Source: Takakia lepidozioides
Lineage: Eukaryota; Plantae; Bryophyta
Direction: 5' to 3'
DNA: 64,000 nucleotides
Assembly: GCA_030704615.1 (NCBI GenBank)
Contig: CM060731.1
Span: 93,310,001-93,374,000 of the forward strand
Shown one piece after another: positions 14,732-60,899 of the stretch (the stretch's first letter is position 1; each line of letters opens with the position of its first letter). The notes below the pieces were generated by a model that searched no databases, was not told where the DNA came from, and was given only the letters and a program-made list of their open reading frames with translations. The position numbers and the translations under genes are program-made.

Positions 14732-14739
14732 GTTGCAGG

Positions 14740-30228: not shown

Positions 30229-30236
30229 GTTGCAGG

Positions 30237-35595: not shown

Positions 35596-36159
35596 CTAAG
35601 AAGCTGGAACCTCGATTGGCCTCTCAACAAGTTCATGACTAACAGGGTGTCGGTAGGTGAAGACAATGGATGCAGCCCGTTCGCCTTTGGTGTAGTGGAC
35701 AACGGTGTCATGTCCTCCGATATATGCACCATCGTAAATCGAGATCTTTGTTGTGGAGACTCTGTGTCCATAGGACTCATCCTCGTAGCTTATGAGAATG
35801 TCCCCATACACTGTTTGCGATGGAATCCTCTCTGGCATGTACGTACACCCGATGCAATCCTCATAGGCCCACTGGCAGCACCTCCAATGATGTAGGAAGG
35901 CCGTGCGGCTTTTGGGGATGTTCCATGCTGGCGGAAACTGCAGATCAACGATTCGCAGGCACCAAAGCCGCGCAAGTCCGTCTCGGCAAGGCTGATCGTG
36001 GAGACCAGGAAGGTACTCAAGAGCGGACAGGTGCACCCTCCTCTGCTGAGAGTGGTCTATCCAATCCTGCAAGAATATGAAAATATCCCCTGACTTGGGC
36101 GAGAAGACCCACGGGGTGAGATGCTTGTTTGGGCAGTTGCTGGGATCCCGACACGCCAT
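35596..36159 (-). CDS. Unknown protein X3 (187 aa), diverged homolog of X1/X2 from another subfamily
   Basis: MACRDPSNCP..SGDIF..EY..RTAFLHHWRCCQW..YGDI..YDGAYIGGHDTVV..ELVERPIEVP. Confidence 0.75.
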   Translation of the reverse strand: MACRDPSNCPNKHLTPWVFSPKSGDIFIFLQDWIDHSQQRRVHLSALEYLPGLHDQPCRDGLARLWCLRIVDLQFPPAWNIPKSRTAFLHHWRCCQWAYEDCIGCTYMPERIPSQTVYGDILISYEDESYGHRVSTTKISIYDGAYIGGHDTVVHYTKGERAASIVFTYRHPVSHELVERPIEVPAS

Positions 36160-36389
36160 CGCTGACTATTGAAAGGGCTACCAGGAAGCAGAGAGGGTGC
36201 ACAGGGAAGGGGGAGTGTGGGGAAGCTGAAGTGAGAGGAGCTCGGAGCGAGCAAGTGTTGTTGCTGTCTCGGTTTGAAACGCATGGGTCACGAGCGAAGG
36301 TCGGGCAAGTGGCAGAAAAAGAGCAACATTTAATATAGCCGTACCCAGGAATGAGGGGCAGAATTTAATTTGACATGGCGTCAAATCGG

Positions 36390-37940
36390 AGGGTGACGAC
36401 ACCTGGCCGATAGAGAACATCCCACGGATGGAAAAATGGCGCCGAATTTCCATACGAGGCCCGTCGGATGAAGTTGTCTCGGGGGGAGAGGCCGACACCC
36501 GGCCGACAGAGAACATCCCTCAGATGGAAAAACGGCGCCGATCTCCATCCGAGGCCGTTCGGATGAAGTTGTCTCGGGGGGAGAGGCCGACACCTGGCCT
36601 ACAAAGAATATCCCCCGGATGGAAAATTGGCGCCGAATTTCCATATGAGGCCTGTCGGATGAAGTCGTCTCGGGGGGAGAGGCCGACACCTGGCCGACAG
36701 AGAATATCCCTTGGATGGAAAAATGGTGGCGAATTTCCATCCGAGGCCATTCGGATGAAGTTGTCTCGGGGGGAGAGGCCAACACCAGGCCGACAGAGAA
36801 CATCCCCCGGATTGAGAAACGGCGCCGAATTTCCATACGAGGCCCGTCGGATGAAGTCGTCTCGGGGGGAGAGGCCGACACCTGCCCGTCAGAGAACATC
36901 CCTCGGATGGAAAAACGGCGCCGAATTTCCATCCGAGGTCGTTCGGGCGAAGTCGTCTCGTGGGGAGAAGCCGACACCTGGCCGACAGAGAACATCCCCC
37001 GGATGGAAAAACGGCACCGAATTTCCATACGAGGCCCGTCGGATGAAGTCGTCTTGGGGGGAGAGGCCGACACCTGCCCAACAGAGAACATCCCTCGGAT
37101 GGAAAAACGGCGCCAAATTTCCATCCGAGGCCGTTCGGATGAAGTCGTCTCGTGGGGAGAGGATGACACCTGCCTGACAGAGAACATCCCTCGAATGGAA
37201 AAACGGCGCCGAATTTCCATCCGAAGCCGTTCGGATGAAGTCGTCTCGGGGGGAGAGGCCGACACCTGCCCAATAGAGAACATCCCTCGAATGGAAAAAC
37301 GGCACTGAATTTCCATCCGAGGTCGTTCGAGTGAAGTCGTCTCGTGGGGAGAGGCCGACACCTGGCCGACAGAGAACATCCCCCGGATGGAAAAACGGTG
37401 CTGAATTTCCATACGAGGCCCGTCGGATGAAGTCGTCTTGGGGGGAGAGGCCGACACCTGCCCAACGGAGAATATCCCTCGGATGGAAAAACGGCGCCGA
37501 ATTTCCATCCGAGGCCGTTCGGATGAAGTCGTCTCGAGGGGAGAGGACGACACCTGCCCGACAGAGAACATCCCTCGGATGGAAAAACGGCGCCGAATTT
37601 CCATCCGAGGCCGTTCGGATGAAGTCGTCTCGTGGGGAGGACGACACCTGCCCGACAGAGAACATCCCTCGGATGGAAAAACGGCGCCGAATTTCCATCC
37701 GAGGCCATTCGGATGAAGTCGTCTCGTGGGAGAGGACGACACCTGCCCGACAGAGAACATCCCTCGGATGGAAAAATGGCGCCGAATCTCCATCCGAGGC
37801 CGTTTGGATGAAGTTGTCTCGGGGGGAGAGGCCGACACCTGGCCGACAGAGAACATCCCCTGGATAGAAAAACGGCGCCGAATTTCCATACGAGGCCCGT
37901 TGGATGAAGTCGTCTCGGGGGGAGAGGCCGACACCTGCCC
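36390..37940. repeat. 96-bp tandem repeat (~16 units) containing variant palindrome GGATGGAAAAACGGCGCCGAATTTCCATCC
   Basis: Cores at 36438,36534,36629,36725,36821,36917... Confidence 0.95.
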
Positions 37941-39865
37941 GGGTGCTGCTATTTCATGAGCCATGAGCCCTGAGCGGCATGAGCCATGAGCAGAGTCGTA
38001 AGTGTGGAAAAAAACATGAGCAGCACTATTTTCCGGAAATGAGTGTCCGCGGAATAGGGTTTAGGGTGCCACGGTCATAGGGGAGAAGGACCTCCCGAAA
38101 GGAGGTTCGGCAATGTTATTTAGAAATTATATATTGAAAGGCAATGTTTGCGAATGGTAGGGTGGTACTGCTCTGTACAATGGGGGCCCATTTCAGCCTA
38201 CCAGCCACTTGCAAAATCCACCCACACTCCCAATCCCAAACGAAATGAGCAATGACGCATTCTCGGAACGATGGACACAGAATAGAATAAAAAGAGGGCA
38301 CAATGAGGTTTTTATTGATCCACATGAATTGCATTTGAAGCACGTCTACTGTGCTGATTGTGCAATCAAATCTTTAGCCCTGTGCCTACTGAATACAAGT
38401 CACGTTGTCAATGGGACTTCGACTGCTCTCAGAACTAACTCATGAGTCATGGGGCTCCTCCAGGTAAAGTCGATTGCAGCCGTTGTACCGCCCCTAGTGA
38501 TGTTCACCACAATGTCCTGCCCTTCAATCATACCACCATCGAATATGGAAATCTTCACGTTTTCTCGTCGTCCACACCAATGCGAATGTCCCCATACAAT
38601 GGAGAAGAGGAGCGCACTCCTTCAGGAGAATAGGTCTCTCCGATGGAGTCCACCCACGTCCAGTGGCAGCAGTTCCACCGCAACAGCATAGCAGTGCGCC
38701 TTCTTCTGCATGGGTGACCGTCGTAGCTGGGAAAATCGGAATCGAGGATGCGCAGGAGCCACGGACTCCTCAGACCAAGATCGTCACCCCGTTCGAAGGC
38801 GTGGCCTAGGATATACTCAAAAGCCACCAATGTTTCCACAATCGAACCAGTATCTTCTGTGTAATCTGTGTACCAGATAACAATGTCTCCCGATGTGGCC
38901 GAATACATTGCATAATCGATGCCTCCAAATGGGCAGTCGTCCCGGTTCCGGAAGCACGGCATCCTTGCAAAGGAGGACCTGAGGACGACTTGGATGCCGA
39001 TGACCTTGCGGACAGCTACGAAGCCCTTAGATTTTGGAAATGATGCGAAGCGGAAGAGCAGTCCGGCCTCCAATAATGGAGCATCTAGGTCCCACGTACC
39101 CACCGACGGACGGGGTGGAACGTGTTCATCACGGCAGCGGTGGATGAAGCCATACATCTTTCTCATCAACAAGTTATAGTTTGAGATCTGCCACCGAAGT
39201 CCATCCCCCCGGATGGAAATTCGGCGCCGCATTTACATCGAGAGGGGATGGACTTCGTCGTGTCCAGTGGCTATCGGCCCACCTGGCAGTGACTGCCCAT
39301 AGTTTGCATGGCAGGGTAGGAAACTGAAACGGCTACATTCATGCAGCAGCCAATCTTCATCGGTCCAGGATCCTGTAGGGGGGGATTTAAATGTGCCCTG
39401 GAGTGTTTTGAGGAATTGCAGCGTTAGCTTGAACTTTTTCCACAGCCACCGCGCTGCTCCTCCTCCATCCGGGAGCTGCTGTCATTGAGCGTACTCCGCT
39501 ACTCTTTTTCAAGGATGCCGTGCCGCCAAAATCCAGCCGACTGCCCTTATCATGGCCATGATTATGCTATGTTCAAACCAGAATCAGGAGACATCATTGT
39601 CTGGCTCTCTGTTTTCACAGACGCTGCTGGAATCAAGCAAGAGTCTTTGTGCGCAATGGAGTATCTGGAGGGCTATTACCGCTTTGAGCGAGGTGAGGGC
39701 GAGGGTCAATGCGGTCCGTGGGTCCTGAAAATTGTTGACCTCGATATACCAAGCTGGAAAGGGATGCCGGAAGATCACGCACGGCCCTCGCTTTGGCGCT
39801 GGAACTGCTGCCAGTGGACCAGGGAGGACGGCACCGGGGAAAACTATATACGTGCAGATCACTCC
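37941..39865 (+). mobile_element. Left 1.9 kb of another element A copy (TIR, frameshifted X1, truncated X2)
   Basis: Direct repeat of ~14740-16666; starts GGGTGCTGCTATTTC. Confidence 0.92.
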
Positions 39866-40800
39866 TGGAGACAATGAATGGATGATGCGTTGTGCCAGTC
39901 CAATCCGTCTCGTTTCTCCGCCCTCCTTTGGAGAGAAAGTGGAAGCAGGTGGGATTGAGGCACCTCAGCTTCCCCGCACAGAGGACATATCGTACACGAA
40001 CACCATCAGCAATTTTCGTGCTACTGGTCTTCGTCACACACCAGGGGTGTCCGTCATGCTTTCGATCCATGTCTGTTAACATCCCGGAGGCTTTCTTTGA
40101 CGAAGAAACAGGTGGAAACTCGAAGATGACATTGCCATCGACTTCGGGAGGCAGAAAAGTTACCTTTCTGCTGACTGGGAATTTGGCATAGTCGAGAGCA
40201 GCCAGCTCGGCGAGAACCATCGAGGTGATGTTGTCGTAGGAGCTACACAATGGACCGGGTTGGAGTTATGCTCGAGGGCACATGCGTAGCACCTACAGAG
40301 ACGTCCATGCCGGATTTGAACGACCGTGTGGAGGACATGGGTACCTCAATGCAATCATCTTCCTCGTCGGAAATGTCGAATACGTCCACACGAGAAGCTA
40401 TGGAGGGTCTTGACGGTCCAGGTCGGGAATGATTATCGTTGCATACCTCTCTGTTGGCAGTGGCCGCCTCTCGGTTTCCGGACTCCTTTGTGGATGGTGT
40501 GGGCAGCGACTGATTCGGAAAGGGAATGGGCATTCCCACAGCTCGGTACAGGATGGTGTCTGACGGGGGAACGTGCCATTCGATTCCGCAACCTCCGTCG
40601 TTACCTAGCACGACAATGGTCTCGTCAACCTGTCCAGGAACATCCTTCCTTTCTTCTTCCAAATAAACTGTGCCCGGTTTGAGCTTGAATTTGGAACAAA
40701 GGTAAGTTTCAGTCACTCTGCAAAGTCCTCCCTCGTTTGGGATCCAGGCTCTCCCAAGTTGCGGAGGACAGCAAACTATAGCGTAGGAATTCGGAGCCAT
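39866..40800 (-). pseudogene. Truncated transposase A copy (N-terminal ~310 codons)
   Basis: Near-identical to 25773-26703, with indels. Confidence 0.9.
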
Positions 40801-41224
40801 CGAACACCGCACGGAGTTGGCAAGTGCGAGGTTCAGTATAGCGACAGACCAAGGCTCACAGGCACCATCTAAGTGGATCTGCGGAGTCCATCGACGATTG
40901 GAAGTCGCACATTGAAGTGGAAAGTATTGTTTCAAGCTACATGCATGAAGGTGGGAGGTTTGATTCCATAGCCAGTGAGTAGGACAATGATGGCCGATTC
41001 GGCGACGAAATAACATCTCCTGACAGTTTCTCCTGAGGGTGGATCCAGCAGTATTCTCGGTGCAGACAGGAACGTTTGCACTGACAAGTGCCAGGACTGC
41101 TGGTTAAAACGGTCAGACAACCAAGTTGTGCTCATCAAGACTGGCCGCAATTGTGTTGTTTCGGAACAATGCAACCCATTGAGGTTCCAGATTTCCCGTC
41201 ACGAGTGATTCTGTCGATTGCTGG

Positions 41225-42975
41225 TGGACGGAAATACGGCGCCGCATTTCCGTATTGCATCTTGGTCATGCAACAGAGCGACGGAAATGCGGCACCGAGT
41301 TTCCGTCCGGGGGAAACCTTTATACTCTCCAGAACGGAAATGCGGTAACGCATTTCCATCCAGCAAGCACGGTATGTGAAGGTGGAACGGAAATGCTGTA
41401 CCGCATTTCCGTTCTGATTGAGATTTATGAACAACGGGAACAGAAATGCGGCACCGCATTTCCGTCCGAGTCGCACTTTTCGACATTCCAGAACGGGAAT
41501 GCGGCGCCGCATTTCCATTTTGTATCTGATGCATGGAGCTGAGGGATAGAAATGCTGCAGCACATTTCCGTCCTTAAAAGACATTCATACTCTCCAGAAC
41601 GGAAATGCGGTACCGCATTTTCATTCAACAAGCACGGTATGTGAAGGTGGAACGGAAATGCGGTACCGCATTTCCGTTCTGATTGAGAATTATGAACAAC
41701 GGGAACAGAAATGCGGCACCGCATTTCCGTCAAAGTCGCACTTTTCGACATTCCATAAAGGAAATGCGGCGCCGCATTTCCATTTTGTATCTGATGCCTG
41801 GAGCCGAGTAAGATTCCGACAGCTTCATACAGCGCAATTCCGACCGGTTGAGACATTCACACTATCCAGAACGGAAATGCGGCACCACATTTCCGTTCTG
41901 ACTGAAAATCGTGAACTATCTGAACTGAAATGCGGCACCGTATTTCCATCCGAGTCGCACCTACCATCATTCCAGAACGGAAATGCGGCACCGCATTTCC
42001 GTTCTGACTGAAAATCGTGAACCATCGGAACTGAAATGCGGCAACGTATTTCCATCCGAGTCGCACCTACCATCATTCCAGAACGGAAATGCGGCACCGC
42101 ATTTCCGTTCTGACTGAAATCGTGAACCAATCGGAACTGAAATGCGGCAGCGCATTTCCATCCGAGTCGCACCTCCCAACATTCCAGAACGGAATGTATT
42201 AGATTTAAAAGGGAAATGCGGCACCGCATTTCCGTTCTGATGAAATATCCTGAAACATCGGAATTGAAATGCGGTACCGCATTTCCGTCGGAGTCCCACC
42301 ATCCGACATTCCAAAACGGAAATGCGGCACCGCATTTCCGTTTTGTATGTGAGGCATGGAGCTGTGGAACGAAAATGCGGGAAGGCATTTCCGCCAGCGT
42401 CAGTCGTTAATACTCTACAGAACGGAAATGCGGTACCGCATTTCCATTCTGACTGAAAATCGTGCGCAACGGGTACAGAAATGCGGCACCGCATTTCCGT
42501 TCGAGTCGCACCTTCCGACATTCTCGAACGGAAATGCGGCGCCGCATTTCCGTTTTGTATATTCGGCCTGGAGCTGTGCTACGGAAATGTGTTGCCGCAT
42601 TTCCATCCATGTGAGACCTTCAACCTTTCCAGACCGGAAATGCGACACCGCATTTCTGTCCAGGTGAGACCTCTATACTTTCCCGAACGGAAATGTGGCA
42701 CGGCATTTCCATTCATCAACTAACGTATGTGAAGTGGGAACGGAAATGCGGCGCCGCATTTCCCTTCTGAATCTCATACATGGAGCTGTGGGACGGAAAT
42801 GCGGCACCGTATTTCCGTTCAACAACTAAGGTATGTGAAGGTGGAACGGAAATGCGGTGCCGCATTTTCTTCCAACAAGTACGGATGTGTAGCTTCGTGA
42901 TGGTACTTAACGGAAATGCGGCGCCGCATTCGCATTCTCGCTCCAACTCATCAGACGCTGGGACGGAAATGCCTT
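41225..42975. repeat. 53-bp-period palindrome array (copy)
   Basis: Inverted counterpart of 23575-25345. Confidence 0.9.
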
Positions 42976-43368
42976 GAAATGTGAACACGTGGAGCAACGG
43001 AATTGCTGCACATGTCAGCACTCTATCTGACTGAAGGGGCATGAGGCGGCGCGGCCTGACCGTTGGATAATGATGTTTGATTTTCGGACGGCGGGCGTAC
43101 CCTCAACGATTCGAATTTCGTAATGACGCAAACTCCACGAGGAGACACTTTCGTCCAACGTTTCGAACCCAAGTGGTGCATCACCGCCGTTTCATCTACT
43201 TTTGTCGTGTCTCCTCAGTCACCCCTCTCGTGCCCTTTCCATCTGCACTCTTTGCCCCTTTTCCCTCTCTCTGTTCTTCTTATGCTCGAACCTGAGAGGG
43301 GGGGAGTTCGTGCACCAGACAGGAGACCTCGTCGCAAGCTCCGGAAATTATACTTCGGACGTAGGCCA

Positions 43369-46300
43369 ATGCCGAAGGGGAGGAAGCAGATGCGTCTACA
43401 GGAGGAGATTGCCATCTCCGAGCAGCAGGCCACTCAGGCAACCCAGCCACCAGTGAGAGCTCCATGCGATCGGGCTGCGCGCAGCTGATCGAGCACCGAA
43501 CCCCCCATTTTGCTTCTGTAATTCTTAGACTGAATGCTAGGAGACTTGAATGCAGAACATGTTTGCATGCCTAACAGGAAAGGTGGACGTGCTGGAGGGA
43601 TCGCAGGAATCCGAAGAGCCGCAGGAAGAGTCCGAGGAGCTAGCTGCAGCACGTACACCCACCCGATCCCCGAGCGCGGGTACTCCTGCCGGGCCTAGCC
43701 CTCTGCGATTCAAAGACGCGTCTTCGAAGGGCAAGTTCAAAGTCTCAGAGATCGACTCGCGTTCTTCGATCATGGAGAATCGCCAGCAGGGGTCGGGCCC
43801 TTCTCCAGCAAAGTCGAAGAAGAAGCAGCCCGTCCCTCTACTGGCTTCTGAACCGGCTCAGGCCGATTCACCCCCCCCAACGCGAATGAAGCAGCAGGTA
43901 GAAGACAGATTCTATTGCAGCAGACACCTTCACCTGCAAGGATGAGGAAGCAGAAGGCAATCAGGGCGACGGCCGAACAATCTCCCGCAAAACCGCTTCC
44001 ACGAGCTGAAGCTCAGTTCCTGGAGGATTTCCCGCCTGCAGATGTTGGGGCCGACTCTGCTGCAGCGAAGGCAATGGGATCGACCGTTGATCTCGATTTG
44101 GTACCGGAGGAGGGTGCTGCCGCTGAACGTTCGCAGGCAGACCTCACCACCGATGAGCTAGCAGGCCCGGAGGAGGCCTCTGCAGTGGCAGAATTGCCCG
44201 CACACAGGCCCCAGAGTGCAGCTCCAGTTGAGGATGCTCCACCTGCTCAGCCACTACCGGCACCTACAGACATGTCTCCGGAGGATTTCAAAAGTGCAGC
44301 GGATAAAATGTTGGAGGAGACACACAGTAGCATTGGCAGAGTTCTGGGCAGCAGGGTATTCCAGCGGACTCTTCGAATCCCACTCTGTCGCATGGTCTCC
44401 CTTCCCATCGTCAGGCAGGCCCTTCCCGGAGATGTGGATAAGCTCAAGTTCGCATTTCGAGAAGGGTACCGTCTGGGATCGGCAGCGTTTTACGTTTCCA
44501 TAGAGAATGAGGACGGCGAAACCCGTGGACCCACTGCCGATGAATTGTCAACGTGGGATACCCACTGGCACACTCGCAACCACGAATTCGAGGCGACGCT
44601 GAAGGGTGATCCCGACTTCGGCCATATGTCGGGAAAAATGTTCTTTGTGTGGGACGGGAATCACCGACTTCTCGCCTGGTGGGAGTACATCAAGCAGAAC
44701 CATGCCAAGCACATTGGCTGGCATTACATGGTGGAGTGTGTCATCCTCAAGGTGAAGGCGGCAGACTCCTCCCTCCTCAAGAATGCCATGGCGGACCTCA
44801 ACTCGTAAGATACTCATACCCTCCCTAGCACATTCGAAATGCGGTGCCGCATTTCGGTTTCCATTCTGGTTTGATTCCGTGCTTCCGTGTACTGAACTGG
44901 AGAGTGTGCCTTGCAGGGTCACTGAGAATGCGTACGTGCATACCCACATGGCACATATGCTGTACAGGGTGAGGAAAACTGGTCTTACTGATCCGCAGAT
45001 GTTTGCGGAAATGCTGGAGCCCGAGCTCATTCAGAAAGCCGTTGCAAAAACAGACCGGACATGGTATCGTCTCACTATGGATGGAATGGTGGAGGTGATA
45101 TACGAAGTAAGTCGTGCTCCAATTTCCCTCTGCTCATCCTTCCCCAATTTCCAGTAATGTTTCCACATGAATCGAATGTAACGCTTCTGCATGTTTTTGT
45201 TGGCAGTCAAACATCAAGCTGGATTTGGCCCATGCCAAACGCTTCTTCATGGAAAGTGAGGGGCAGGTGAAAACGTTGCAGTCATTGACTGAGCACTTGA
45301 AGGAAGCCGGTGTCAAGTCCAGAACCAAATACAAGTCAAAGCTTGTGAAGCTGGTGGCAATTGCAGATCCGGCACTTGGAAAGGACTTCATCCCCGAGAT
45401 TGCAAAACACTATTCTCGGGCCATGCAGCCGACCATGCAATTGGAGAAACTGCATCACCTCTCAACGGCATGTGTGGAGGCGAAAGAGAAGGTGAGGTTT
45501 CAATGCACTGAATTTCCTTCCTAGCAATAGCCACTCTCTTCCAGCCACTGACATTGGATCGGAAATGGCAGACACGGTGGCTGTCGATCTGGAATGCATC
45601 CGAGAGCATAAGGACAATGTGGTCTTTTCCACTGGAAGTTTCCGACCCTGCAGTGGATGTGTGGCTCAACCGTATGACTTGGTGGTTCCAGGTAATTCAA
45701 GGTACTTCCCCAGATTTGCTTTTCTGACATGAATTCCCTGAACTGCTACGTGACAATGCATTTGGGAATGGCAGGTAATGTCGAATGCAAAGGAGCAAGT
45801 CGTAATGCACACAAATTCGTTCGGCTTGTACGTCAAATGGGATGGAACACAGACATTGGAAGACTACGTGACACGTTTCAGATGTGCGTACAAGGACAAC
45901 CTTTTCGCCAGAGAGCTACAGACAGCAAGAAGGAGCGTGGAGTTTACACATCAGGAGGGAGCGGGGAAAGCTGCAATGCGAATTGTTTACAGGTGAAGCA
46001 CAGCTGCCCTTGTATGCGAAGCCTGGTTACGAGGTTTGTCTCGGAAATGCGGCACCGCATTCGCATTTTATGTTTTCGGTGGCACTCTGCGAGTAGGTTG
46101 GTCTCAAGTTTTGCTCACGCATGCTGACTGCCTTGCAGGTATATGAAATACGTGCTCCTTCAGACAGGGGCCCTGGCTCAAGAGCCCCCGTTCTTCATGG
46201 CTTGGACCGTGGCGGGCCCAAGCTGTGTCTACACACCCGAGATGCAGAAACAATGGCATCCCGCGCATCTCGTTGGATGCCCGTGGTACCTGGACATGTC

Positions 46301-48492
46301 TGGCGGTATTGTTGACGAGTCTGAGAAAGATCTGCACGCCTTGGCAGAAGAGAAGAGAAAGGAAAGACGTGTCCCTGCTGGGCCAAAGTCGGCAAAGGAA
46401 TCTGCTGCTCTGGAAGAATCCAGAAAGGCAGCTGAGATGGCACAAAAGACGGTGGATGCAGCTGTGCAGGCCCAACAGAAGGGGTCGAAGAAGAGGACTC
46501 GCCAGCAAGGAGCAGCTGTTGTGACACCCGCCAAAACGAAGAAGCAGAAACAGCCTGTTCAGGAAGAGGGTGAGGAAGAGGACTCCGATGGAGACTTTGC
46601 AACCAGCCCACCCCCCCAAACGCAGGCTGCCTCCCCTGTGCCCACCGTTGTCACCAGAGGCACGAGAACTGGCTCGGCAAAGAAGGCACTCTTCAACCCC
46701 CCAGGGGGGCACCCTTTCGAGCCGGTGGAAATGAAGAGGCCGAAAGTGGCTCCCGAAACTGTAGTCCAGTGTGTAAATGAGAGTTTCTTGGCGGCTTTGG
46801 ATGGACGGGCAGCCAAGTTGGCATACATGAAGACCATGGAGGGTCTGAAGGGCAGAGCACTGAAGAAGGCGACTGCCGAAGAGCCTTCCGACACCCCAGG
46901 ATTTCAGAATATGGTCTCGTTCTTTGAGAGGGTGTGTGCAGACAAGGATTGTAGGAGGGGCGGAAATGCCACCGAGTGGTCTTGCGATATGATCATCTTG
47001 GATATTCCGGACGGAGAGCCTGTGGAAGGACTGCAAGCTTTGCCATCTTGGAACAGGTACTCGGAGGACTTTTGGAAGAAAGGATTCGGGCTTGCCCGCA
47101 TGGTGTTGGACGACAGAGGCTGTGTGGTTGTCCTGGCGAGCAGAGGAAAAAACACTCAGACAGGAATTGCGAAGTGGACCCGCAAGAGCGCCGTCCCGAT
47201 TCTGAAAAAGAAGTGGACGTGCATCAACACACTGGGCCTTCGGTCGGAAGGGAAGAAGGTGATTACGACACTGGCACTCGTCCATTCATTTGCTTGGGTG
47301 CTTTCAAATGCGGTGCCGCATTCGGTTTCTAATCGTTTTCCCCCTGTGTATGCAGACGAAGCAGTTCGATGCATACTGCTTTGTGAAGGAAAACTCCACC
47401 TTTGCTTTCCGGAAGGAGGGAGGAAAGGTTGACCCGAACTGCGACCCACTCGATTACGACGTTCTGTTCAACAACGTTCCCAAGGAACTTCTCCCTCATA
47501 GCCTCACTTCAACGGAACCCCTGCGGTACTCACGGACTCGGAGCCCTGCCTTCATTCAGACAATTATGGAGACATGCACAGACGTGGAGGGCACAGTGCT
47601 GGACCTCATCTGTGGGACAGGTATGCAGAATCTTGATCTCTGCTGTTCTGCAAATTCTCGTTAGGATGTAGTTCGCAACATCTGAAGCGCCATGTGGTAA
47701 TGTGTGGATGGCATTGTAACAGGTGCCTCAATGTGGGCTGGGCGGTTTTCCGACCGGCACCTCTTTGCCTACGAGGAGGATTCATCCGTGTGGGGATCCC
47801 ATCTGGAGGGGCTGCAACGGAATGTGAAGGCTCCCGACAGAGCGGAAGTCTCCTCGGATTCGTCGGAGTCCGAGGAAGACACAGTGGACATTGATGCAGA
47901 GGAGAACCCGGAATACGAGTGAGTGCAAACATTGTAAGTTTGCAAAGCCTTCTGGGTCATTTATGTCAAAGGAATTTCCCGACTGTGGTTCTCATTAGTC
48001 TCGTTGATGATTGTCATGTGCAGGATTGCAGGGTCCGGGTCGAAACATGTAGGGCCTACACTTCCTGCCAGGAAGAATGTCCCGTTCTTTGCGAGGGCCG
48101 ACTTCATGACGAGCCCGGTGAGGGACTACTCCCTTCCTAGTTATGCAGCTAAACTCGCAAATACAGCGATTAGAAGAAGTGAGAATCCCAGTAAAGTAGA
48201 GCAGATTTTGGAGAGGGCTAGGGAGGACAGAAGGATAAGGAAAGAGTTGGCAGCAGCTCAGACAGGTAGACGGGTACGAAAGTACATATGTGATTCAGCG
48301 GATGAGAGCGACGCAGACAGGGAGGAAGACGACCCAACGGAGGTGAGATGGACAGTTCCGCAAGGGGAAGATGGGATTTTCGAAAGCCTGGCCAACGAGC
48401 AGTCCGCTGGAGATGAGAGAGGCACTGAGGGGGTGGAGGAGGAGCAGGACAGTCTAGAACAGGATGAGGATTCCGATGATTTTCAAGATTAA
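43369..48492 (+). CDS. ParB-like / beta-class MTase-like fusion, second copy (one frameshift near 43900)
   Basis: Exons read by eye: ..-44804, 44917-45106, 45207-45491, ~45545-45691, 45775-45992, 46139-47258, 47356-47620, 47723-47918, 48024-48492; DGNHR ~44653, DIPD ~47001, DLICGTG ~47602. Confidence 0.72.
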
Positions 48493-48639
48493 TAGAATTT
48501 TAATGAAGTCTCTGTAAATGTAAATTCTCTTCCAGAGTATATAAAGAAAATTCTGCCCGACATTCGTGACCCCTCTCCAGTGTGCATTCCAGCCACACAA
48601 TCGCCCAAACCAGGACGCTCCCAAAATCAGAAATGGGTC

Positions 48640-49440
48640 AGGGCATTTCCAAAATTTTGGCAACTCTAAGAACCTCTTTTGGAAATGCGGCACCGCATTT
48701 CCAAAACAGGGGAGGGACTAATTTTTCCATTTCAATGTTGGCATAGTAAAAAGTAATCTGAATTGGGAATGCGGTGCCGCATTTCCAAAATTTCCTTTGT
48801 CCACACGCCAGTTTTGGCCTCTCCCGCTCATTGCATGGATGCCACCACGCTTACAGAGGTCGAACAAGGAGGTCGAACAAGGAGGCCGACATGGCGGGAT
48901 TGGAAATGCGGTGCCGCATTTCCATATTGGGGATGGTGGTTGTTCGAACTGCAGACCCATCAGCAAAAACTGGCACCGCATTCCATTGTAAAAAAAAAGT
49001 CGATGACGGACATGGAAATGCGGCGCCGCATTTCCAGAACGGACATCGCAATTTGTCAATTTGCAGACCCTCTCTCGGAAATGCGGTAACGCATTCCATC
49101 GCGCTGGTCGGAAATAGGTGCACTTTTCGAAGTGTTGGACGGAAATGCGGCACCGCATTCCCTTGTCCAAAAAGAAGTTTCCATTGCCAAGCTGGAAATG
49201 CGTCGCCGCATTTGCAATGCCAACCTCGTTTTCTGATCAATTTATAGACCCGTGTTGGTATTTCGTGTACCTGGACGGAAATGATGCACCGCATTTTCTT
49301 GTCCCACATGGAAATGCGGTGCCGCATTTCGATGTCCGACATGGAAATACGGCACCGCATTTCGATGCGGACATGGAAATGCGGCACCGCATTTCGATCC
49401 CGACATGGAAATGCGGCGCCGCATTTCGATGCCGACATGG
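48640..49440. repeat. Palindrome array (copy of 17150-17947)
   Basis: Direct. Confidence 0.9.
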
Positions 49441-50054
49441 CGTTACTCTGGTATATTCTTGACACATGACTCACATACCGGTTACTCTGCTTTATTCAAC
49501 CAGACAGACAAATTGTAGAAATGAGACATCAAATTGTAAACAGTGGGCCAAATCCGAGAGTTATTCAACACAATGAAACACAGTCATACAGAAGTGAGGT
49601 ACATTCCAGGGCACACTCCAGGGCACATTTAAATTTCCCCCGTACAGGATCCTGGACCGATGAAGATTGGCTGCTGCATGAATGTAGCCGTTTCAGTTTC
49701 CTACCCTGCCATGCAAACTATGGGCAGTCACTGCCAGGTGGGCCGATAGCCATTGGACACGACGAAGTCCATCCCCTCTTCGATGTAAATGCGGCGCCGA
49801 ATTTCCATCCGGGGGGATGGACTTCGGTGGCAGATCTCAAACTATAACTTGTTGATGAGAAAGATGTATGGGTTCATCCACCGCTGGCGTGATGAACACG
49901 TTCCACCTCCGTCGGTGGGTACGTGTGACCCAGATGCTCCATTTTGGAGGCCGGACTGCTCTTCCGCTTCGTATCTTTTCCAAAATCTAAGGGCTTCGTA
50001 GCTGTCCGCAAGGTCATCGGCATCCAAGTCGTCCTCAGGTCCTCCTTTGCAAGG

Positions 50055-50618
50055 ATGCCGTGCTTCCGGAACCGGGACGACTGCCCCTTTGGAGGCATCG
50101 ATTATGCAATGTATTCGGCCACATCGGGAGACATTGTTATCTGGTACACAGATTACACAGAAGATACTGGTTCGATTGTGGAAACATTGGTGGCTTTTGA
50201 GTATATCCTAGGCCACTACGCCTTCGAGCGGGGTGACGATCTTGGTTTGAGGAATCCGTGGCTCCTGCGCATCCTCGATTCCGATTTTCCCAGCTACGAC
50301 GGTCACCCATGCAGAAGAAGGCGCACTGCTATGCTGTTGCGGTGGAACTGCTGCCACTGGACGTGGGTGGACTCCATCGGAGAGACCTATTCTCCTCGAG
50401 GAGTGCGCTCCTCTTCTCCATTGTATGGGGACATTCGCATTGGTGTGGACGACGAAAACGTGAAGATTTCCATATTCGATGGTGGTATGATTGAAGGGCA
50501 GGACATTGTGGTGAACATCACTAGGGGCGGTACAACGGCTGCAATCGACTTTACATGGAGGAGCCCCAGGACTCATGAGCTAGTTCTGAGAGCAGTCGAA
50601 GTCCCATTGACAACGTGA
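50055..50618 (+). CDS. X1 copy (187 aa)
   Basis: Near-identical to 15203-15766. Confidence 0.75.
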   Translation: MPCFRNRDDCPFGGIDYAMYSATSGDIVIWYTDYTEDTGSIVETLVAFEYILGHYAFERGDDLGLRNPWLLRILDSDFPSYDGHPCRRRRTAMLLRWNCCHWTWVDSIGETYSPRGVRSSSPLYGDIRIGVDDENVKISIFDGGMIEGQDIVVNITRGGTTAAIDFTWRSPRTHELVLRAVEVPLTT

Positions 50619-51129
50619 CTTGTATTCAGTAGGCACAGGGCTCAAGATTTGAGGGCACAATCAGCACAGTAGACGTGCTTCAAATGCAATTCATGTGGAT
50701 CAATAAAAACCTCATTGTGCCCTCTTTTTATTCTATTCTGTGTCCATTGTTCCGAGAATGCGTCATTGCTCATTTCGTTTGGGATTGGGAGTGTGGGTGA
50801 ATTTTGCAAATGGCTGGTAGGCTGAAATGGGCCCCCATTGTACAGAGCAGTACCACCCTACCATTCGCGAAACATTGCCTTTCAATATATAATTCTAAAT
50901 AACATTGCCGAACCTCCTTCATCGGGAGGTCCTTCTCCCCCTATGACCGTGGCACCCTAAACCCTATTCCCGCGGACACTCATTTCCGGAAAATAGTGCT
51001 GCTCATGTTTTTTTCCACACTTACGACTCTGCTCATGGCTCATGCCGCTCATGGCTCATGGCTCATGAAATAGCAGCCCCCCCGTATAAGTGTCTAAGTC
51101 CTAGACAGTCCTCTAACAGCGATCTGATG

Positions 51130-54100
51130 GAGAATCTCCACAAGTGACGACGAATGCGCAAGAGTAGCTGGACACACAAGCACATCAGTTCAAGATGGAG
51201 ATATCTCCTGCAGCAGAGAGCCTACGTGACTATGTGACGAGGTACTTTCTGCTCTACAAAACCAACATATTCTTTCGGGAGATAGCAGATGCTCGCCGGA
51301 GCCACGAGTTCACCGACCAGCCGAACGCGGACAAAGCAGCAATGCGCCTTCTGTACAGGTACATACGCGCTGCCTTTCTTTCAAGTCCTTGCATTTCAGG
51401 ATGTTAGAGGCCTCATGTGGTGTTAGGGAAAATGGCGCCGAATTTCCAGTCAGGGCTCCGAAAATGGCTAAGTCCCTAGACTGGCTGGCCCTGAACTGGA
51501 AATTCGGCGCCATTTTCCAGTTCTAGGCCCTATAGCCGTTCAGGGACTTGGCCATTTTCGGGCTAAGTCCCTAGACTGGCTGGCCCGGAACTGGAAATTC
51601 GGCGCCATTTTCCAGTTCTAGGCCCTATTGCCGTTCAGGGACTTGGCCATTTTCGGGCTAAGTCCCTAGACTGGCTGGCCCTGAACTGGAAATTCGGCGC
51701 CATTTTCCCTATTGCCGTTCAGGGACTTAGCCATTTTCGGGCTAAGTCCCTAGGGTGGCTGGCCCTGAAGTGGAAATTCGGCGCCATTTTCCAGTTCCAG
51801 GCACTATTGCCGTTCAGGGACTTAGCCATTTTCGGGCTAAGTCCCTAGACTGGCTGGCCCTGAACTGGAAATTCGGCGCCATTTTCCAGTTCTAGGCCCT
51901 ATTGCCGTTCAGGGACTTAGCCATTTTCGGGCTAAGTCCCTAGACTGGCTGGCCCTGAACTGGAAATTCGGCGCCATTTTCCAGTTCTAGGCCCTATTGC
52001 CGTTCAGGGACTTAGCCATTTTCGGGCTAAGTCCCTAGACTGGCTGGCCCTGAACTGGAAATTCGGCGCCATTTTCCAGTTCTAGGCCCTATTGCCGTTC
52101 GGGGACTTAGCCATTTTCGGACTAAGTCCCTAGGGTGGCTGGCCCTGAACTGGAAATTCGGCGCCATTTTCCAGTTCTAGGCCCTATTGCCGTTCAGGGA
52201 CGTAGCCCTTTTCGGGCTAAGTCCCTAGGGTGGCTGGCCCTGAACTGGAAATTCGGCGCCATTTTCCAGTTCTAGGCCCTATTGCCGTTCAGGGACGTAG
52301 CCATTTTCGGGGTAAGTCCCTAGGGTGGCTGGCCCTGAACTGGAAATTCGGCGCCATTTTCCAGTTCTAGGCCCTATTGCCGTTCAGGGACTTAGCCATT
52401 TTCGGGCTAAGTCCCTAGGGTGGCTGGCCCTGAACTGGAAATTCGGCGCCATTTTTCCAGTTCTAGGCCCTATTGCGGTTCTGGGTCTTAGCCATCTTCG
52501 GGCCAAACCGGGAAAAATGGCGCCGAATTTCCAGTTCAGGGCTCCCAAGATGGCCAAGTCCCTAGGGTGGCAGTCACCGAAAACCAAAATTCGGCGCCAT
52601 TTTTCCATTTCTAGGCCCACTCACATCCGCCCCAACCTGGGAAAATGGTGCCGAATATGCATTTCAGGGACCTCATTGTGTTTTTCATGAATGCAGGTAC
52701 TGCAAGTTCTCCCTTTTGGAGAAAGATCATCTGTCTTTCGAGCCACCATTCTTCCTGGCATGGAGGAACCCTGGGGCTGACTCCATGTACACTGACGATA
52801 TTGTGAAGGAGTGGCATCTGGAACATTTGCGTGATTGCCCTTGGTATGTGGACCTTCCGCCCGGCTCGCTCGACCCATCCGAGTTTCAATTGAAGTTGGA
52901 TGCTGAATTCCGACGAAACCGGGCTCCGCTGCCTCCGTTGGGTGCAAAAGAGGCAAAAGCGCTTGCGAACTCCAGGAAAGCGGCAGAGCTTGCTCAGGCA
53001 GGAATTCAGGAGAAATTGCATGAGAAGAGTAAAGGCCAAAGGAAAAGGACAAGGAAACAGGTGAGTGCAGTAACACCCAAAAAGAAGAAAACCATTGGGG
53101 CATCGGAGGAGGCGCAGGAGGGGACCCAAGAGAGTGACTTGGACGACGACTTTGTTCAAGGTCCTGCGACTGCTGTTGCTCCTACCCAGTCACCGGTCGT
53201 CCGGGTTCCCAAGTCAGTTTGGAGTGGGACTGGCTCTGCCAAGAAGTTGGCATTTGAGGGCGAGCCTACACGGCGGTATTCGGCGGTGACGTTTACGCAC
53301 AGGCCAAAGCTAGAACCTCCAACCATCATCCAATGCGTCAATGAGAGCTTCCTTGACGCTCCCGCTGCCAGGGCGAAGAAGGTGGCATACAACAAGTCTC
53401 TGGCGGAGCAGAAGGGGAAAGCCAAGAAGAGGGCTGGCGGTACAGAGCCTAAAGACACCCCTGGTTTTGAAGCCATGATGGAATTCTTCACGGCTGTGAG
53501 CACAAATTGCAAGAGCACTCGGGGGGGGGGGGGGGGGGGGTTTGAGGTGGAGAGAGCTTGCGACATGATTCTCCTTGACATTCCAGATGGGGAGCTGCTG
53601 GAGGGCCTGGATGGTGTGCCCACCTGGAACAGGTTTACTGAGGACTACTGGAAAGCCGGGTTTGGGCTGGCGGGGATGCTTTTGGATGACGGTGGATGTG
53701 TGGTTGTCCTTGCCACGAGAGGGAAGACCACAGAGAATGCGGTGGCAAAGTGGACACCGAAAAGTGTCACCCCGGTCCTCCTCAGAAAATGGTTCTGCAT
53801 CAGTACACAGGGGTTGCAAACAGAGGGCCAAAGTGTAAGTTATCAATCTATTGCATTCACTTCATATTGTGGTGTATGTTAAGTAGACCCTGGAGTTGAT
53901 CCCTTCTTTGTTGGATGTGCAGACATTGGTGTTTGAGGCATATTGCTTTGTGAAGAGAGGGTCTACGTTCAAATTCCGCAACGACGGTCGTCTTGTTGAT
54001 GCCGCTGTGGACCCTGTAACCTACGATGTCCTCTACAACTATGTGCCCCACTCCAGTATGCCGAAGGACACAAAGACAAGCAAACCGTGGCGGTACAGCC

Positions 54101-55032
54101 GGACCCGGAGCCCTGATTTCATCCAAACCCTCATGGAGACGTGCTCGGATGTCCAAGGGCGGATTCTGGACCTCACATGCGGCACGGGTAAGCCTTCACG
54201 TGCTCAGTTTGTTCCCTGGCCCGATTGCAATTGCATGCCGCAATCTATTAACCGCCCACTTTGTTCCTCAGGTGCTTCAATGTGGGCAGGGACGTTGTCC
54301 GACAGGCATGTGTTCGCCTTCGAGCCAGATACTGCCCTCCACAACTCGGAACTTGCAGCGGCTGAACGTCTGCCGAAAGAGGAAGAGGCATCCTTGGAGG
54401 ATGAGGAAAAATCCGAGAAGGAGCAGGGGGAGGAAGTTGGGATCGAGGCCGAGGAGCCCCCGGTTTACGAGTGAGTGGTGGCATTGTAAGTTGCCTCCAG
54501 ATTTCGTGAGGCACCTCCCTCCGCTCTCTTATTTCATTGAAAACCCTTTCTGGTTGTGCTGGTATTGACATTCTTGAAGTGGATTTGTTCTTACTGTAGG
54601 ATGCCAAGTACTGCCGGAGGGACGTCTACACCGGAGTTCATGGGCAGGAGGAATGTGCCTTTTTTTGCCAGGGGGGATTTCATGCCTAGTCCAGAAAGGG
54701 AGTACATCCTTCCTACTTATGCTGCCCGGCTTGCTTCGGTGTCCATTAGGAGGTGTTCCGAACCTAGTGGTGTACAACAGATTTTAGACGAGGCAAGCCT
54801 CAAGAAAATGAAGATGAGGGAGGAGGCAGCAGCTATTAGAGCCCGTCGGGCTCGTAGATTTGTGTTGGATTCTGCTAAGGAAAGTGGGGGAGAAGACGCA
54901 GAAGATTCCCAGGAGGTGAGGTGGACAGTCCCCCAAGGAGATGACGGGATTTTTGAGAGGCATAGTGGAACTGATGCATCACAGAGCTCGGAGGATGAGG
55001 GGGATGAGGAAGAAGGTGGGGCAAGTTCCTAG
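51130..55032 (+). pseudogene. Diverged paralog of the ParB-MTase gene (3' exons only)
   Basis: LRDYVTRY..AAMRLLYR, EPPFFLAW, CDMILLDIPDG, RTRSPDFIQTLMETCSDVQGRILDLTCGTG, RRNVPFFAR; same intron positions as the element A gene. Confidence 0.8.
51425..52665. repeat. 95-bp tandem repeat with variant palindrome GGAAATTCGGCGCCATTTTCC, inside an intron
   Basis: Cores at 51506,51601,51696,51780,51875,51970...; intron ~51359-52697. Confidence 0.95.
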
Positions 55033-56129: not shown

Positions 56130-57430
56130 GCAGTGTGGACACAACCAATCTCCGTCAGGAACCTTCTCAAGAGGTGGTGTCAAGCATCCCATATGCCAAC
56201 CCCTTGAGCATCAATCACACACCAGCATGGTGGCTGCCCCTTTGGTAGACCCACAGAGCATGCACCTCAAACCTGCAGGTACCACTGCCAAGTTTGGGTC
56301 AACTCTGCCATCGACATTGGGAAGGTGACATGGCGCACAATTACGCACATGGTCCTTCCAAGTCATGCCATCCCGACCCTCCAAGATCAGGACCCCTGAG
56401 GGCAACACCTCTCGAACCCTCAGAATAACACGCCCTGCAATAACATCCAGAGTCGTAGGAGCAGTCTGCTGCAAATAAACATAGTCACCAGGGCTAAACC
56501 TCCGAACCCCAGGACGATATCCTCCACCACGTATAGTGGCATACCTCAACGTATCACGGTGTTGTGCAATGGCAAGGTTCTCAAAAGCCATGGGCATGAC
56601 TTTCTTGAACAACTCTGCACGCTAATCACATGCACGTACCCACACGTCCGGATCGTCAAGGTTAAGGACTTGAGCAGTGTCCCTACGAATGGCTGCAGGC
56701 AAATCCGGCTCTCGGCCAAAGAGAAGGAAATATGGTGAGAATGAGGCAAGTGATGCTTGTTTGCTGAACCTGTAGCCCATGGCTAACCAAGGAACCTGAA
56801 GATCCCAATCTCCTAGGTGTCCCTTCTGCAAGCCATACTTGCGCAAACCCCTCTTCACCGTCTAAACAACTCTCTCTGCTAAGCCATCGGCCTCAGGATG
56901 ATCCCGAGAAGTGGTGCGGTGGTCTATCAAGGCTTTATCACACAAAGCCTGAAACTCCCCCAAGAACTCTCTCCCTTGGTCCGTGAGTACCTCAGCTGGA
57001 GCACCAAATCGGCTAAGCACACCATCCAAGAATGCATACGCAGCCCCCTCACTAGCCTTGTCAGGCAATGGAACCAACTCAATCCACTTGGAGAAGTGCT
57101 CCACCATCACCAACACATATCTGTGGTGGCGCATAGTCAGTGGCAACGGTCTTGCGAAGTCAAGACTCCACCTGTAGCCCAATCCCATGATTGGTAAATG
57201 ATGCAACTGTGGTGTAGGGGCGTTGAATGAAGCACGCACCCTGTCACACACCATGCACCTAGCCACGAACTGTTGCACCTCTGTATGCATACCACGCCAT
57301 CAATACTACCCCTGCAGTAAACTGTGAGTGCGTCGCACTCCAAAATGCCCCAACTCCTCATAGGCATGTCGCACTAACCGTGCACGCTGTGAAGGGTGAG
57401 GCACAATCCTCACCCGACCACTCTGCACTC
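56130..57430 (-). pseudogene. Gypsy integrase with C-terminal PHD finger
   Basis: GHFG..CMVC, WSLDF, TDQGREF, DGLAERVV; CMLC..MLVCD*CSRGWHMGCLTPPL..WLCPHC. Confidence 0.88.
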
Positions 57431-58400
57431 TGCGTTGCTCAACCATAGCCAAGCTGATAATCCAGGTCAAGCAATTGAGATCCATTGCTTGCCCCAACAC
57501 CTGACGACGTGATGCCTCAGAAAGAGACGACACCGCCGTGGTACCAGTGGGAAAACCCATTGCCCGCTCACGCTCGTCAGCATTAGGCTCCACTAACTTC
57601 TGCAACTGAGCATCCCACAAGAGGCCAGGTCCACTATCCCGGAAAGCATGCGATCCTGGGAAGCTGAGCAATGTAGGTAATGCTGCTCGTGGTTGACCCA
57701 CCTTGTTGACCACTGCCAAAGGTGAACGGTCATCGTGTCTAACACGCTGAGACTGCCTCCCTGTGTCCAGAATGCTATCCACTGTGAGATGTGCTGGCCG
57801 CTGCACCCCATCAAATGCACGCTTGAGCAGTGCGGGTGGCATCAAGTTAGTCCACCATAGCCGTGGACGATGAGTCCGTGACCCCACTGTAGCTGCATCT
57901 AGCAACACTGCTGACCCAAGCCACGACCGGACTTGATGCACACTGGCCATCACCCTGGCCCGAGAATCGCCCATTAGTGGCACATTCTCCAAGATGTATG
58001 CTGGAGATACAGCTTGATGAATCTGCAAGTGGCGCAAAACCCGCACCATCTCCCAAACCAGACCCGACCTCGAGTCTCGCAATCCATTGTCATGCCCGGC
58101 TGATGAATGCCCTTGGCAAGGCCAACCTGCCACTACCAGATCAATGGAGCCAACCCGCTCCAAATCCTGCGCCCCCAGCAACGAAATGTCTGCTGGCAAG
58201 GCCTGCTGATATCCACGAATTGCAGACATCGGCAACAACTCAGGGTACTGCTGCACCAACTAAGCAACATGGCAAAGTGAAACGCGTCGTGCAGTCTCAT
58301 GTCTCTCCACATACAGGTAACGCTGAACTCGTAAACCTGCCTGTAACACAACAGCCAATCCGGTGCTGATCCCGCTCCAGAAGACAAATGCCTTCATTCG
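57430..58400 (-). pseudogene. Retrotransposon-borne cytosine-5 DNA methyltransferase domain
   Basis: Motif IV DLVVAGWPCQGHS, VI YILENV, VIII HRPRLWW, IX ERERAMGFP, X LGQAM; motif I disrupted. Confidence 0.9.
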
Positions 58401-60899
58401 GATACTGCCACACAATAGGTGTGGTGTCCAATGGAGACAACTGAGGTGGTGCTGGTGCAATCCCCGCACTCTCCACCTCTCCTGACGGTACAAAAGCCTC
58501 CACCTAGGCTTGTTGCACCCGTCGATCAGCATCCCGCTACAAATCCTTGCTCGTGCCCCACAATGGAGTCTGAGCAACCATGGTAGGCAACTCCGCCATA
58601 CCATACATGTCATCTTGCTCTCCCAGAGGTGGCATATCCTCTGAATGAGCGTTGCCCTCAAGCAACTCTCCAGGCCAATTCACTGCCGTTGTGAATGATG
58701 CTAGTGTCGGCATCTTGCCTCGTTGGGCAACCGCAACTCCTCCTATGAACGTCACAGGGAGCTGCACATGCCGGCCCTCCCCTGACTGCCATGCAGGCCT
58801 ATAGGAAGCTGACTCCTCCCAAAAATCCAGGGTGAAGCCCATGGGGTACAACACTGCCCCACCAACCAGGACATCGTATGAGACCGCGTCTGTCACAATG
58901 GCCTTGGCTCGCATCACTGAGCCATCTGTAGGGTGATCCAGCCGTAGTCTAATAGCCAACTCACGCCGTGTCATGCCCCGAGCCTGCTCCGATCCTCCCA
59001 GAGACGTCTGTATCTGGAAAGGATAAGGCTCCATATCCGCCTCCGTGAGGCCCAAGCCTGCAATAGCAGCTCTGCCCAGCATCAATGGCCGAGCTCCCGA
59101 GTCCAACAAGACCCGCAGTGGCCGGTACCTCTTGCTTGCCAGTCCACTCAAACAGAAAATGCCATCCTGGTTGTCTAACATGACAACTCCAGGTGTCACC
59201 ATGGCGCGCTCAATGGCTGGCCTAGCTGGCAGCTCCATCAACCTGGCAGCTGCACCTTGCCATGGCGCCGCCATGGCAGTCTTGACCCTCAACTCCGAGG
59301 ATCCCTCCGGCACTATACCTCCCACTATCTCCGCAGAAGATGAAGTAACCTCCCCACTCTCACAGAGTGTAGCTGCCAGCCTGAACACCTCAGCTGGTCT
59401 AACCCCGGCGTCGCAATCATGGTAGCCGAGAACAATGGAGCCTGGCACACAGATGTGGCCGCTCCTAGCAGCACACTAGCTGCCGTAGCCTTGGCAACAC
59501 TAGGTAGTGGTGCTACCCGTGTAGCTCTCCCCAATGGCATAGTAACCTCCGCCTCGGTAACAGTCGGGCGAGAACTAGGTGCCATGGATGGCGTCGACAC
59601 TGTCTCCGCCAATGTGAATGACTGAGGAAGCCTAGCCTAACGGCTTGCCTCCCCACGCTGTGGATCCAACTCCATCTCTGCACCTCGTGGTTCAGGAACT
59701 CGTGCTGCTCCTCGAGTCACGGCTGCAGCAGACTCCACCTGCACTAGTGGTAGTGCTGCTCCACACATGAATCCCATGCCTCCCATATCTCCTCCCTCAG
59801 AAGCAGGAGGTGGACCATCCGGCCTTAGAGCCGGTACCACCTGAGCTGTAGCCATGGCAATGAGCCTCTGCTCTAGCTGCTGAAGCCGGTTGGCCATGAC
59901 TTGGTCAACACCCTGACCTCCGCGTCCTTGGCCTTGTTGAGCTTGCCCTTGGCCTGCACCTCGTGGCTGGCCACCTCCTCCTCTCTGGGCTGCTCCACCT
60001 CGCCCCCGGCCACCATTGTTCCCTTGGAACTGGCCTGGGCGCAACTCAGGATGCAAACCATAACACTGGTCTCCATGCCCGTGCTTGCCACAATGCCCAC
60101 ACTGCAACTGTGCAGGCTGTGCATGTGCCGGCCCTTTGCCTCCCTCTGGGCAATCCTTCTTGACATGGGGTCCTCCACATGTCCAGCACACCACATCCAC
60201 CCGTTGTTGCCCAGCAAATGAAGGGAGAGACCCCTGCATCTGAGGTCCTCTCTGCCCTTCCCTGAGCTTCACCTGAGCCCCCTTGTTGCCTTGAGCACGT
60301 TGAGGTAGTGGTTGGCTAGGAGCACCACTACCCCGTGGCGTCTCCTTAGCAAATCCCACCATGACCACTCGTTCCTCCACCATGTTGAGCTCTATCCGCT
60401 CTACCAGCAAAAACACATTTGCTAAGGTGGGTTGGGCCGCTTGTAGGAGAGTTGCATCCCGCACCCTTCTCCTCAGCTCCTAGAGTCAGTCCGGGTTTGG
60501 GCTGGGGTGTCCTTGCAGGAGCAACACCGTGGAGTTGTTTTTGGTGTGGGGGAGTTGTCGTTCTGATTTCTTGTGTTTGGATCCCCTCCATACCTGCATG
60601 CTTGACTGTGCGCCATGCTAGTTTTGTGTGGGCGCTTGTTTTTATAGGTGATTGGTCCGGATCTGATCACCGGCCAGTCCTAGAGCATGCTGTCAATGGT
60701 GAGGCTGGGGTGATGACCAGCCAGACCATCATTGTTTCTCCTGTGGTGAGGTTGGAGGTGATGACCAGCCAACCATAGGAGTGCTTGCGGTGGATGCAGG
60801 TATAGGTGTAGGCTATGTTAGGAACTTAGTATTCCAAACCCTAAGCCGCAACAGGTTCTCTACCCGGTTACCTTGTGGAGAGGGGGTTAGGGACATGTT

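Follow-up and report, generated by a model that had tools for sequence, protein, structure and literature searches.

Fusions of a ParB-like domain to an amino-methyltransferase (MTase) have been described on algal transposons. The available passages on Sola1-1_Ec32, an element of the brown alga Ectocarpus, report a 1104-amino-acid ParB-like + N4C/N6A MTase gene opposite the transposase, propose that this accessory protein binds and modifies its own element, and cite Iyer 2011 for green algae (PMC12477816). In Bostrychia, Plavaka transposons of 17-19 kb encode PAG2 and PAG3, and the ParB-like PAG3 lies beside inverted-repeat arrays; according to the part of that source available, homologues occur in Chondrus Mutator elements and VANDAL is the only proven self-modifier (10.1101/2025.02.11.637652). 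Here we describe a gene at positions 43369-48492 of a 64,000-nucleotide stretch of the Takakia lepidozioides contig CM060731.1 (93,310,001 to 93,374,000, forward strand; assembly GCA_030704615.1), the whole of which we call the window. Its predicted product joins a ParB-like domain to a beta-class MTase-like domain, and the gene almost certainly belongs, as an accessory gene, to a young DNA transposon of Mutator-like type and not to the host. By its predicted architecture, this land-plant gene belongs to the class of ParB-MTase transposon accessory genes already reported on algal transposons. What is new are the land-plant Mutator-like carriers, an erosion of the catalytic motif throughout the family and phased palindromes that have a core in common. 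A literature search, thin in its cover of subscription journals, turned up no report of a ParB-MTase fusion in land plants or on Mutator elements, nor of such motif erosion; the supplements of the algal studies may list cases.

Sola1-1_Ec32 and the element described here (element A) are both giant DNA transposons in which a large ParB-like + amino-MTase fusion and the transposase are encoded on opposite strands. The former differs in its host, a brown alga, and in its superfamily, Sola-1; judging from the available passages, the likeness is one of architecture only, and these passages mention neither the state of motif IV nor a palindrome array. The Bostrychia elements likewise place a ParB-like accessory protein next to tandem inverted-repeat arrays, but in the accessible part of that study ParB is fused to a 2-oxoglutarate-dependent oxygenase, and the N6A methylase (a Pfam match) is fused to SET in a separate gene. 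The functional model is VANDAL, whose transposon-encoded accessory protein VANC is described, in the portion available, as lowering methylation on its own element, although VANC belongs to an unrelated protein family without a ParB or MTase fold. VANDAL elements are members of Mutator and carry motif arrays. Phage ParB-methylase loci are the likely ultimate source of both domains, but the present gene, unlike them, has old and conserved spliceosomal introns. ParB-helix-turn-helix methylase fusions and inactive transposon MTases are listed in PMC4738411, and the present family is not described in the part of it available. The algal papers proposed self-binding and modification by ParB-fused proteins and gave no test. 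The complete young element makes this proposal directly testable in a land plant: it supplies boundaries, an intact transposase, an accessory gene under selection and phased arrays of a defined 22-bp site, the core of which also occurs in a distant relative.

The following features make up this element and its derivative:

14740-30228: complete element A (15,489 bp), bounded by terminal inverted repeats that are short and imperfect and flanked by an exact 8-bp target duplication (14732-14739 / 30229-30236)
15206-15892 (-) and 16193-16891 (+): divergent gene pair at the left end of element A, about 230 amino acids, 46% identical
18084-23207 (-): copy A of the ParB-MTase gene, about 99% identical to copy B and intact at the site matching 43896
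25470-29377 (+): intact Mutator-like DDE transposase of element A, one 83-nt intron, head-to-head with the ParB-MTase gene
13044-14732 and 30236-32088 (-): older related transposase split by element A
37941-51081: element B, a rearranged non-autonomous derivative carrying copy B; two left ends, no matching target duplication

Terminal inverted repeats, a target duplication and an empty site, the marks of cut-and-paste transposition, were all found for element A, which interrupts the transposase of a related element; the reading frame of the latter is restored across the empty site with one duplicate kept. The target duplication of Mutator-like elements (MULEs) is usually 9 bp, compared with 8 bp here. 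The contents of element A are the two small genes, the ParB-MTase gene, a palindrome array and the head-to-head transposase. The transposase covers 1275 codons from stop to stop, with D, D, CxxH and E motifs recognized by eye, a C-terminal SWIM-like finger (E 0.063, below the cut-off) and a Cys/His-rich N-terminal domain, which we take, by eye, to be GCM-like (no Pfam GCM match). This agrees with the Mutator architecture given in the available part of PMC1702500, namely a DDE enzyme with an N-terminal WRKY-GCM1-type domain and a C-terminal SWIM. Searches of Pfam, PHROGs, NCBIfam and PDB sequences returned no significant ParB, MTase, MULE or GCM match for the proteins of the element (for the transposase, no Pfam MULE/GCM match and a blank PDB sequence search), and an Rfam search of 14000-56000 was blank. 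At least three related elements are nested in the window, which suggests that these elements target, or build up in, others of their family. Element B keeps only the 5' part of the transposase (39756-41103), and copies A and B belong to a 9.8-kb inverted duplication. An earlier note on the gene at 43369-48492, made from the letters of this DNA, had missed both copy A and the carrier transposon.

The gene itself was modelled on copy B:

43369-48492 (+): copy B, a ParB-like + helical + beta-class MTase-like gene, about 1400 amino acids when intact; 1-nt frameshift at 43896
43369-43452 (inferred), 43556-44804, 44917-45106, 45207-45491, 45572-45691 (+): copy B exons, 5' part
45775-45992, 46139-47258, 47356-47620, 47723-47918, 48024-48492 (+): copy B exons, 3' part
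44338-44804 (+): ParB/Srx-like domain predicted from sequence, with a D-G-N-H-R-x-x-A patch and a conserved distal Asn
46983-47830 (+): beta-class amino-MTase-like domain on three exons, with DIPD (47001-47012), a W-N loop, DLICGTG and an acidic motif II

The earlier note had proposed an intron-containing fusion, and splicing bore this out: nine exons from 43943 to 48492 join into a single open frame of 1240 codons, and all introns are GT-AG and 80-146 nt long (the boundaries of the first are movable by one base). Every motif it had named was located, with WDGNHRL at 44650-44670, CDMIILDIPDG at 46983-47015, RTRSP at 47533-47547, VLDLICGTG running up to the donor at 47620/47621 and RHLFAYE in the next exon. 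Its view that the S-adenosylmethionine (SAM) motif is completed only by splicing holds for the following helix and motif II, whereas DLICGTG can be read unspliced. We inferred the 5' end of copy B, an 84-nt first exon and a 103-nt intron, from copy A, where they yield an open frame of 444 codons that runs through the ParB exon. Read from the ATG at 43369, copy B loses its frame at 43896, where one nucleotide is deleted relative to copy A and run X3, and copy A has a 1-nt deletion of its own at the position matching 46611 of copy B. Contigs of four runs (X1-X4) were compared with 43000-49000. The base at 43896 is present at 74.4/74.4 depth in X3 and at 17.5/43.2 in X4, which holds both states; as X3 contigs are also intact at the second frameshift site, intact copies exist, and each of the two indels could be genuine or stem from assembly. 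One 353-nt X1 contig skips exactly two predicted introns (45492-45571 and 45692-45774), the RNA nature of X1 being the tool's guess, and no contig of the four runs bridges the ParB exon and the MTase exons, those exons without coverage in X1/X2 being uninformative. Between the two copies (43000-48650 vs 17850-23600), C-G transversions account for 17 of the 53 isolated substitutions with no clear context bias; their share is smaller in the other repeat pairs of the window, save two (3/21; 4/19).

Homologues also carry both domains together. NCBI gene models from two Adiantum ferns (P0017, P0023, P0026, P0027), which are gene predictions and not cDNAs, have them in one protein and match the window model with E values of 1e-23 to 1e-30 in the N-terminal half and 1e-12 to 1e-16 in the MTase. 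We also used a metagenome set of 60 loci in 33 non-redundant clusters, probably from few host genomes. One of these loci (L001) splices to a 983-amino-acid open frame, collinear from ParB through motif II, that shares the aligned place and phase of six of the eight modelled window introns, one 3 columns off. Three unnamed proteins stop at the same intron after the ParB exon, and MTase remnants follow the ParB exon in 16/33 clusters. The fusion is old, with conserved spliceosomal introns, and no close prokaryotic or viral relative was found. Seven of the 17 clusters with at least 4.5 kb of upstream sequence have head-to-head transposase homology. One other cluster differs from these: the transposase match in its locus L059 (11037-13499) is downstream, on the strand opposite to the ParB exon. 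The window holds two further relatives of the gene:

51141-55029 (+): diverged paralogue whose MTase domain is 60% identical; truncated at its 5' end, without ParB exon in the window
62229-64000 (-): second partial copy of the diverged paralogue

Copies A and B differ at 16 of 834 synonymous and 11 of 2883 non-synonymous sites, a ratio of non-synonymous (dN) to synonymous (dS) rates of about 0.2 between young copies; relative to the diverged paralogue, dS is saturated and dN is 0.32. Purifying selection on the ParB-MTase gene, which the earlier note had suspected, is supported by these counts.

The ParB identity of the N-terminal domain is only moderately supported. The ParB/Srx superfamily is marked by a GxxRxxA-type patch after a beta strand, and the patch W[DE]GNHRxxA/S is present in the window gene, L001, P0001-3 and most fern proteins. 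Atlas scores for the domain were 0.94-0.95, with one cluster labelled ParB/Sulfiredoxin and another having ParB_N in 11% of its members; this favours the ParB-like label given at the outset, which received no fold or profile confirmation. An hhalign comparison with a single P1 ParB gave 0.2%, and a profile built from P1 relatives was too shallow. Chromosomal ParB has a Glu ahead of the distal Asn; here this Asn is conserved and the Glu is absent. None of 36 viral-contig candidates was a relative of the domain, and tblastn against phages yielded E values of only 6-9.

The C-terminal domain has a permuted Rossmann fold with motif IV ahead of motif I, as in beta-class amino-MTases (PF01555) and as the earlier note had held; the fold was shown on a fern homologue. 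The best PF01555 score was 13.7 bits (one of nine long homologues), below the gathering cut-off of 26.7 bits, and the window exons gave no match. In place of the catalytic [DNS]PP[YFW], the window gene has DIPD, and none of the 33 rows of the family alignment reads DPP[YFW], compared with DPPY in 68/78 phage control enzymes. Motif IV was therefore rightly called non-canonical, but a conserved DIPD it is not. The D-x-P core is kept across the 33 rows (first residue Asp in 31, Asn in two), and the fourth residue is most often Thr (15/33), then Asp (6/33) and Phe (5/33), with E, S and N also found; it is non-aromatic (T, D, E, S or N) in 28 rows and acidic in 10. The alignment shows that the base-stacking aromatic of motif IV has been lost in most of the family. 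Between the altered chemistry and the dead reader first suggested, the varying fourth residue argues against one new Asp-based chemistry and for a loss of base stacking. The active enzymes M.BceJIV, CcrM, M.MboII, M.PvuII and rotifer N4CMT keep the [DS]PPY whose aromatic is lost here, and Marchantia DN4MT1, in the part of its source available, keeps TSPPY and has no extra domains, unlike the transposon ParB-MTase. The likeness once drawn to host writers of N4-methylcytosine (4mC) was misleading, as those keep SPPY and the present gene is transposon cargo, and the aromatic loss warns against annotating the family as writers of 4mC or N6-methyladenine (6mA). SAM motif I and acidic motif II read DLICGTG...YEED in the window gene and ELGAGTG...IDND in ferns, and motif I of L001 is altered (DWNASTG); the predicted fold likely binds SAM. 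A loop [WL]R[GY]xx[ER][KR]S, found in the window gene, L001 and the fern proteins, replaces the HPxxKP of phage enzymes. A DLPF subgroup (P0013, P0016, P0020, P0021, P0039; two carrying fern protein names) has retained an aromatic at the fourth position and would be the best candidate in the family for an active enzyme. In a motif tree (102 columns; its L001 row mislabelled and wrongly cut, at another motif) the DLPF rows fall within groups of T/S rows, which hints that their Phe is secondary, the tree being too weak to rely on.

Palindromes lie in arrays beside both copies of the gene and singly in introns of copy B:

23500-25400: 30 palindromes of 22 bp, arrayed mostly at 53-bp intervals in the gap that separates the two divergent genes of element A
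41150-43000: matching array of 31 palindromes upstream of copy B
48600-49500: downstream array of 14 palindromes, with spacings of 32-33, 50-53, 62-64, 83-84 and 137
44836, 46044 and 47305: single palindromes in three copy B introns

Element A holds 50 copies of the palindrome in total. Their spacing is 53 bp in 23 of 40 intervals and mainly 32, 63, 74 or 84 in the rest; five of seven spacing classes deviate by no more than 1 bp from multiples of 10.5 (binomial p ~0.011, for classes picked after seeing the data and with 104 and 137 treated as sums). Phased spacing of this kind would place bound proteins on one DNA face. The two outer CpGs of the palindrome are conserved, being present in 43-49 of the 50 copies. 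The arrays of the diverged paralogue repeat every 95-96 bp; the 95- and 96-bp arrays (51466-52503; 36397-37941) consist of variant palindromes with the same core, and the 95-bp array sits in a paralogue intron whose counterpart in the ParB-MTase gene has one palindrome. In the metagenome locus L002, the core CGG(C/T)(A/G)CCG occurs upstream of the ParB exon with spacings of 127-128 and 75 bp, which exceed multiples of 10.5 by 1-2 bp. A likeness of the half-site to the GCM consensus was dropped, as it fails for the paralogue and L002 variants.

The mechanism that we favour, tentatively and at a little short of an even chance, is that of a self-binding anti-silencing factor with a SAM-binding pseudo-methyltransferase. 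The product, likely dimeric, would use a nucleotide-gated domain of ParB type, a likely DNA clamp, to bind the phased palindrome arrays of its own element. The MTase fold, binding SAM and transferring no methyl group, would cover the CG-rich sites, and the shared promoter region could thereby be kept free of host cytosine methylation. If so, transposons would have a second route to self-protection, unrelated to that of VANC, and this might be the first ParB/parS-like loading system in a eukaryote. Several observations weigh against such a role. Selection has preserved the first Asp and the SAM motifs, and Phe occurs in 5/33 rows, so catalysis is possible. The predicted structures of the ParB-like domain are of low confidence, with a pLDDT below 50 over most of it, and Pfam, PHROGs and NCBIfam gave it no ParB match. 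The Cys/His domain of the transposase is an equally good candidate for the palindrome binder. In most copies the CpG at the centre of the palindrome has mutated (mostly to TG, CA or TA), so that this position at least is unprotected, and 10 of the 17 clusters have no visible transposase upstream. At least two cores were found in only one of the 60 loci (L002). Most other loci are CpG-depleted relics (observed/expected 0.24-0.32, three tested), which makes missing arrays in decayed loci uninformative; these relics also show that the host eventually methylated such elements.

A serious but unlikely contender is an active 4mC or 6mA writer that, with a non-canonical motif IV, would mark its own palindromes and block or antagonise host 5-methylcytosine (5mC). 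The catalytic first Asp, motif I and motif II intact in window and fern proteins and the full beta-class fold speak for it, as does the same role proposed for Sola1-1_Ec32 in the passages available. The lack of any DPP[YFW] row, the non-aromatic fourth position, the replaced HPxxKP loop and the altered motif I of L001 speak against it, and SPPY-to-APPA abolished N4CMT activity, albeit with two residues changed together. It is rather unlikely that a transposon-encoded, phage-derived ParB clamp with a rebuilt MTase loads on helically phased CGGCGCCG-core palindromes, slides over the element and writes or erases a cytosine mark without the DPPY aromatic; such a machine would be a self-addressed epigenetic editor with parS-like sites in seed-free land plants. 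We regard as doubtful a structural transposition cofactor, in which the transposase binds the palindromes, the ParB-MTase protein helps to bring the ends of the 15-kb element together by clamping or compacting it, and the MTase fold is a dimerisation scaffold. Arrays near one end and internally, in helical register, would suit this cofactor, as would short, imperfect termini, the dimeric state of beta-class MTases and cofactor-pocket motifs that vary among lineages. Yet the largest array occupies the promoter gap common to the two genes, at a distance of 5-9 kb from each end, single sites lie in introns of the gene, and SAM-pocket motifs persist in ferns and the window lineage. Improbable is a new SAM-dependent chemistry or substrate (RNA, protein, 5mC editing or removal) with a rebuilt active site: the rebuilt loop is common to the window gene, L001 and fern proteins and an acidic fourth residue occurs in 10/33 rows, but that residue is not fixed, the element has no partner enzyme and there is no direct sign of a product. 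That the gene was captured and does nothing for the element, as the 1-nt frameshift in both assembled copies and the many decayed relatives might suggest, is very improbable and largely refuted by selection (dN/dS ~0.2) and synteny, with conserved intron positions and transposase linkage and X3 contigs intact at both frameshifts.

The remaining features of the window are as follows:

35599-36165, 38403-39865 and 49929-50615: further copies of the small left-end genes
56214-60479 (-): LTR (long terminal repeat)-type retroelement
10853-11959: pentatricopeptide repeat (PPR) gene fragments

For the small left-end genes, there was no Pfam match for either, no PHROGs match for the one searched and none among the 60 loci. 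The PPR gene fragments identify the host as a land plant, and the relatives of the ParB-MTase gene suggest that it is likely a seed-free one. The pol region of the retroelement has a C5 cytosine methyltransferase domain beside the integrase (E 1e-13). Fusions of retroelements with C5 methyltransferases are known from algae and dinoflagellates, and the domain seen here (57309-58259; PF00145, E 7.7e-13; PCQ motif) is a land-plant occurrence.

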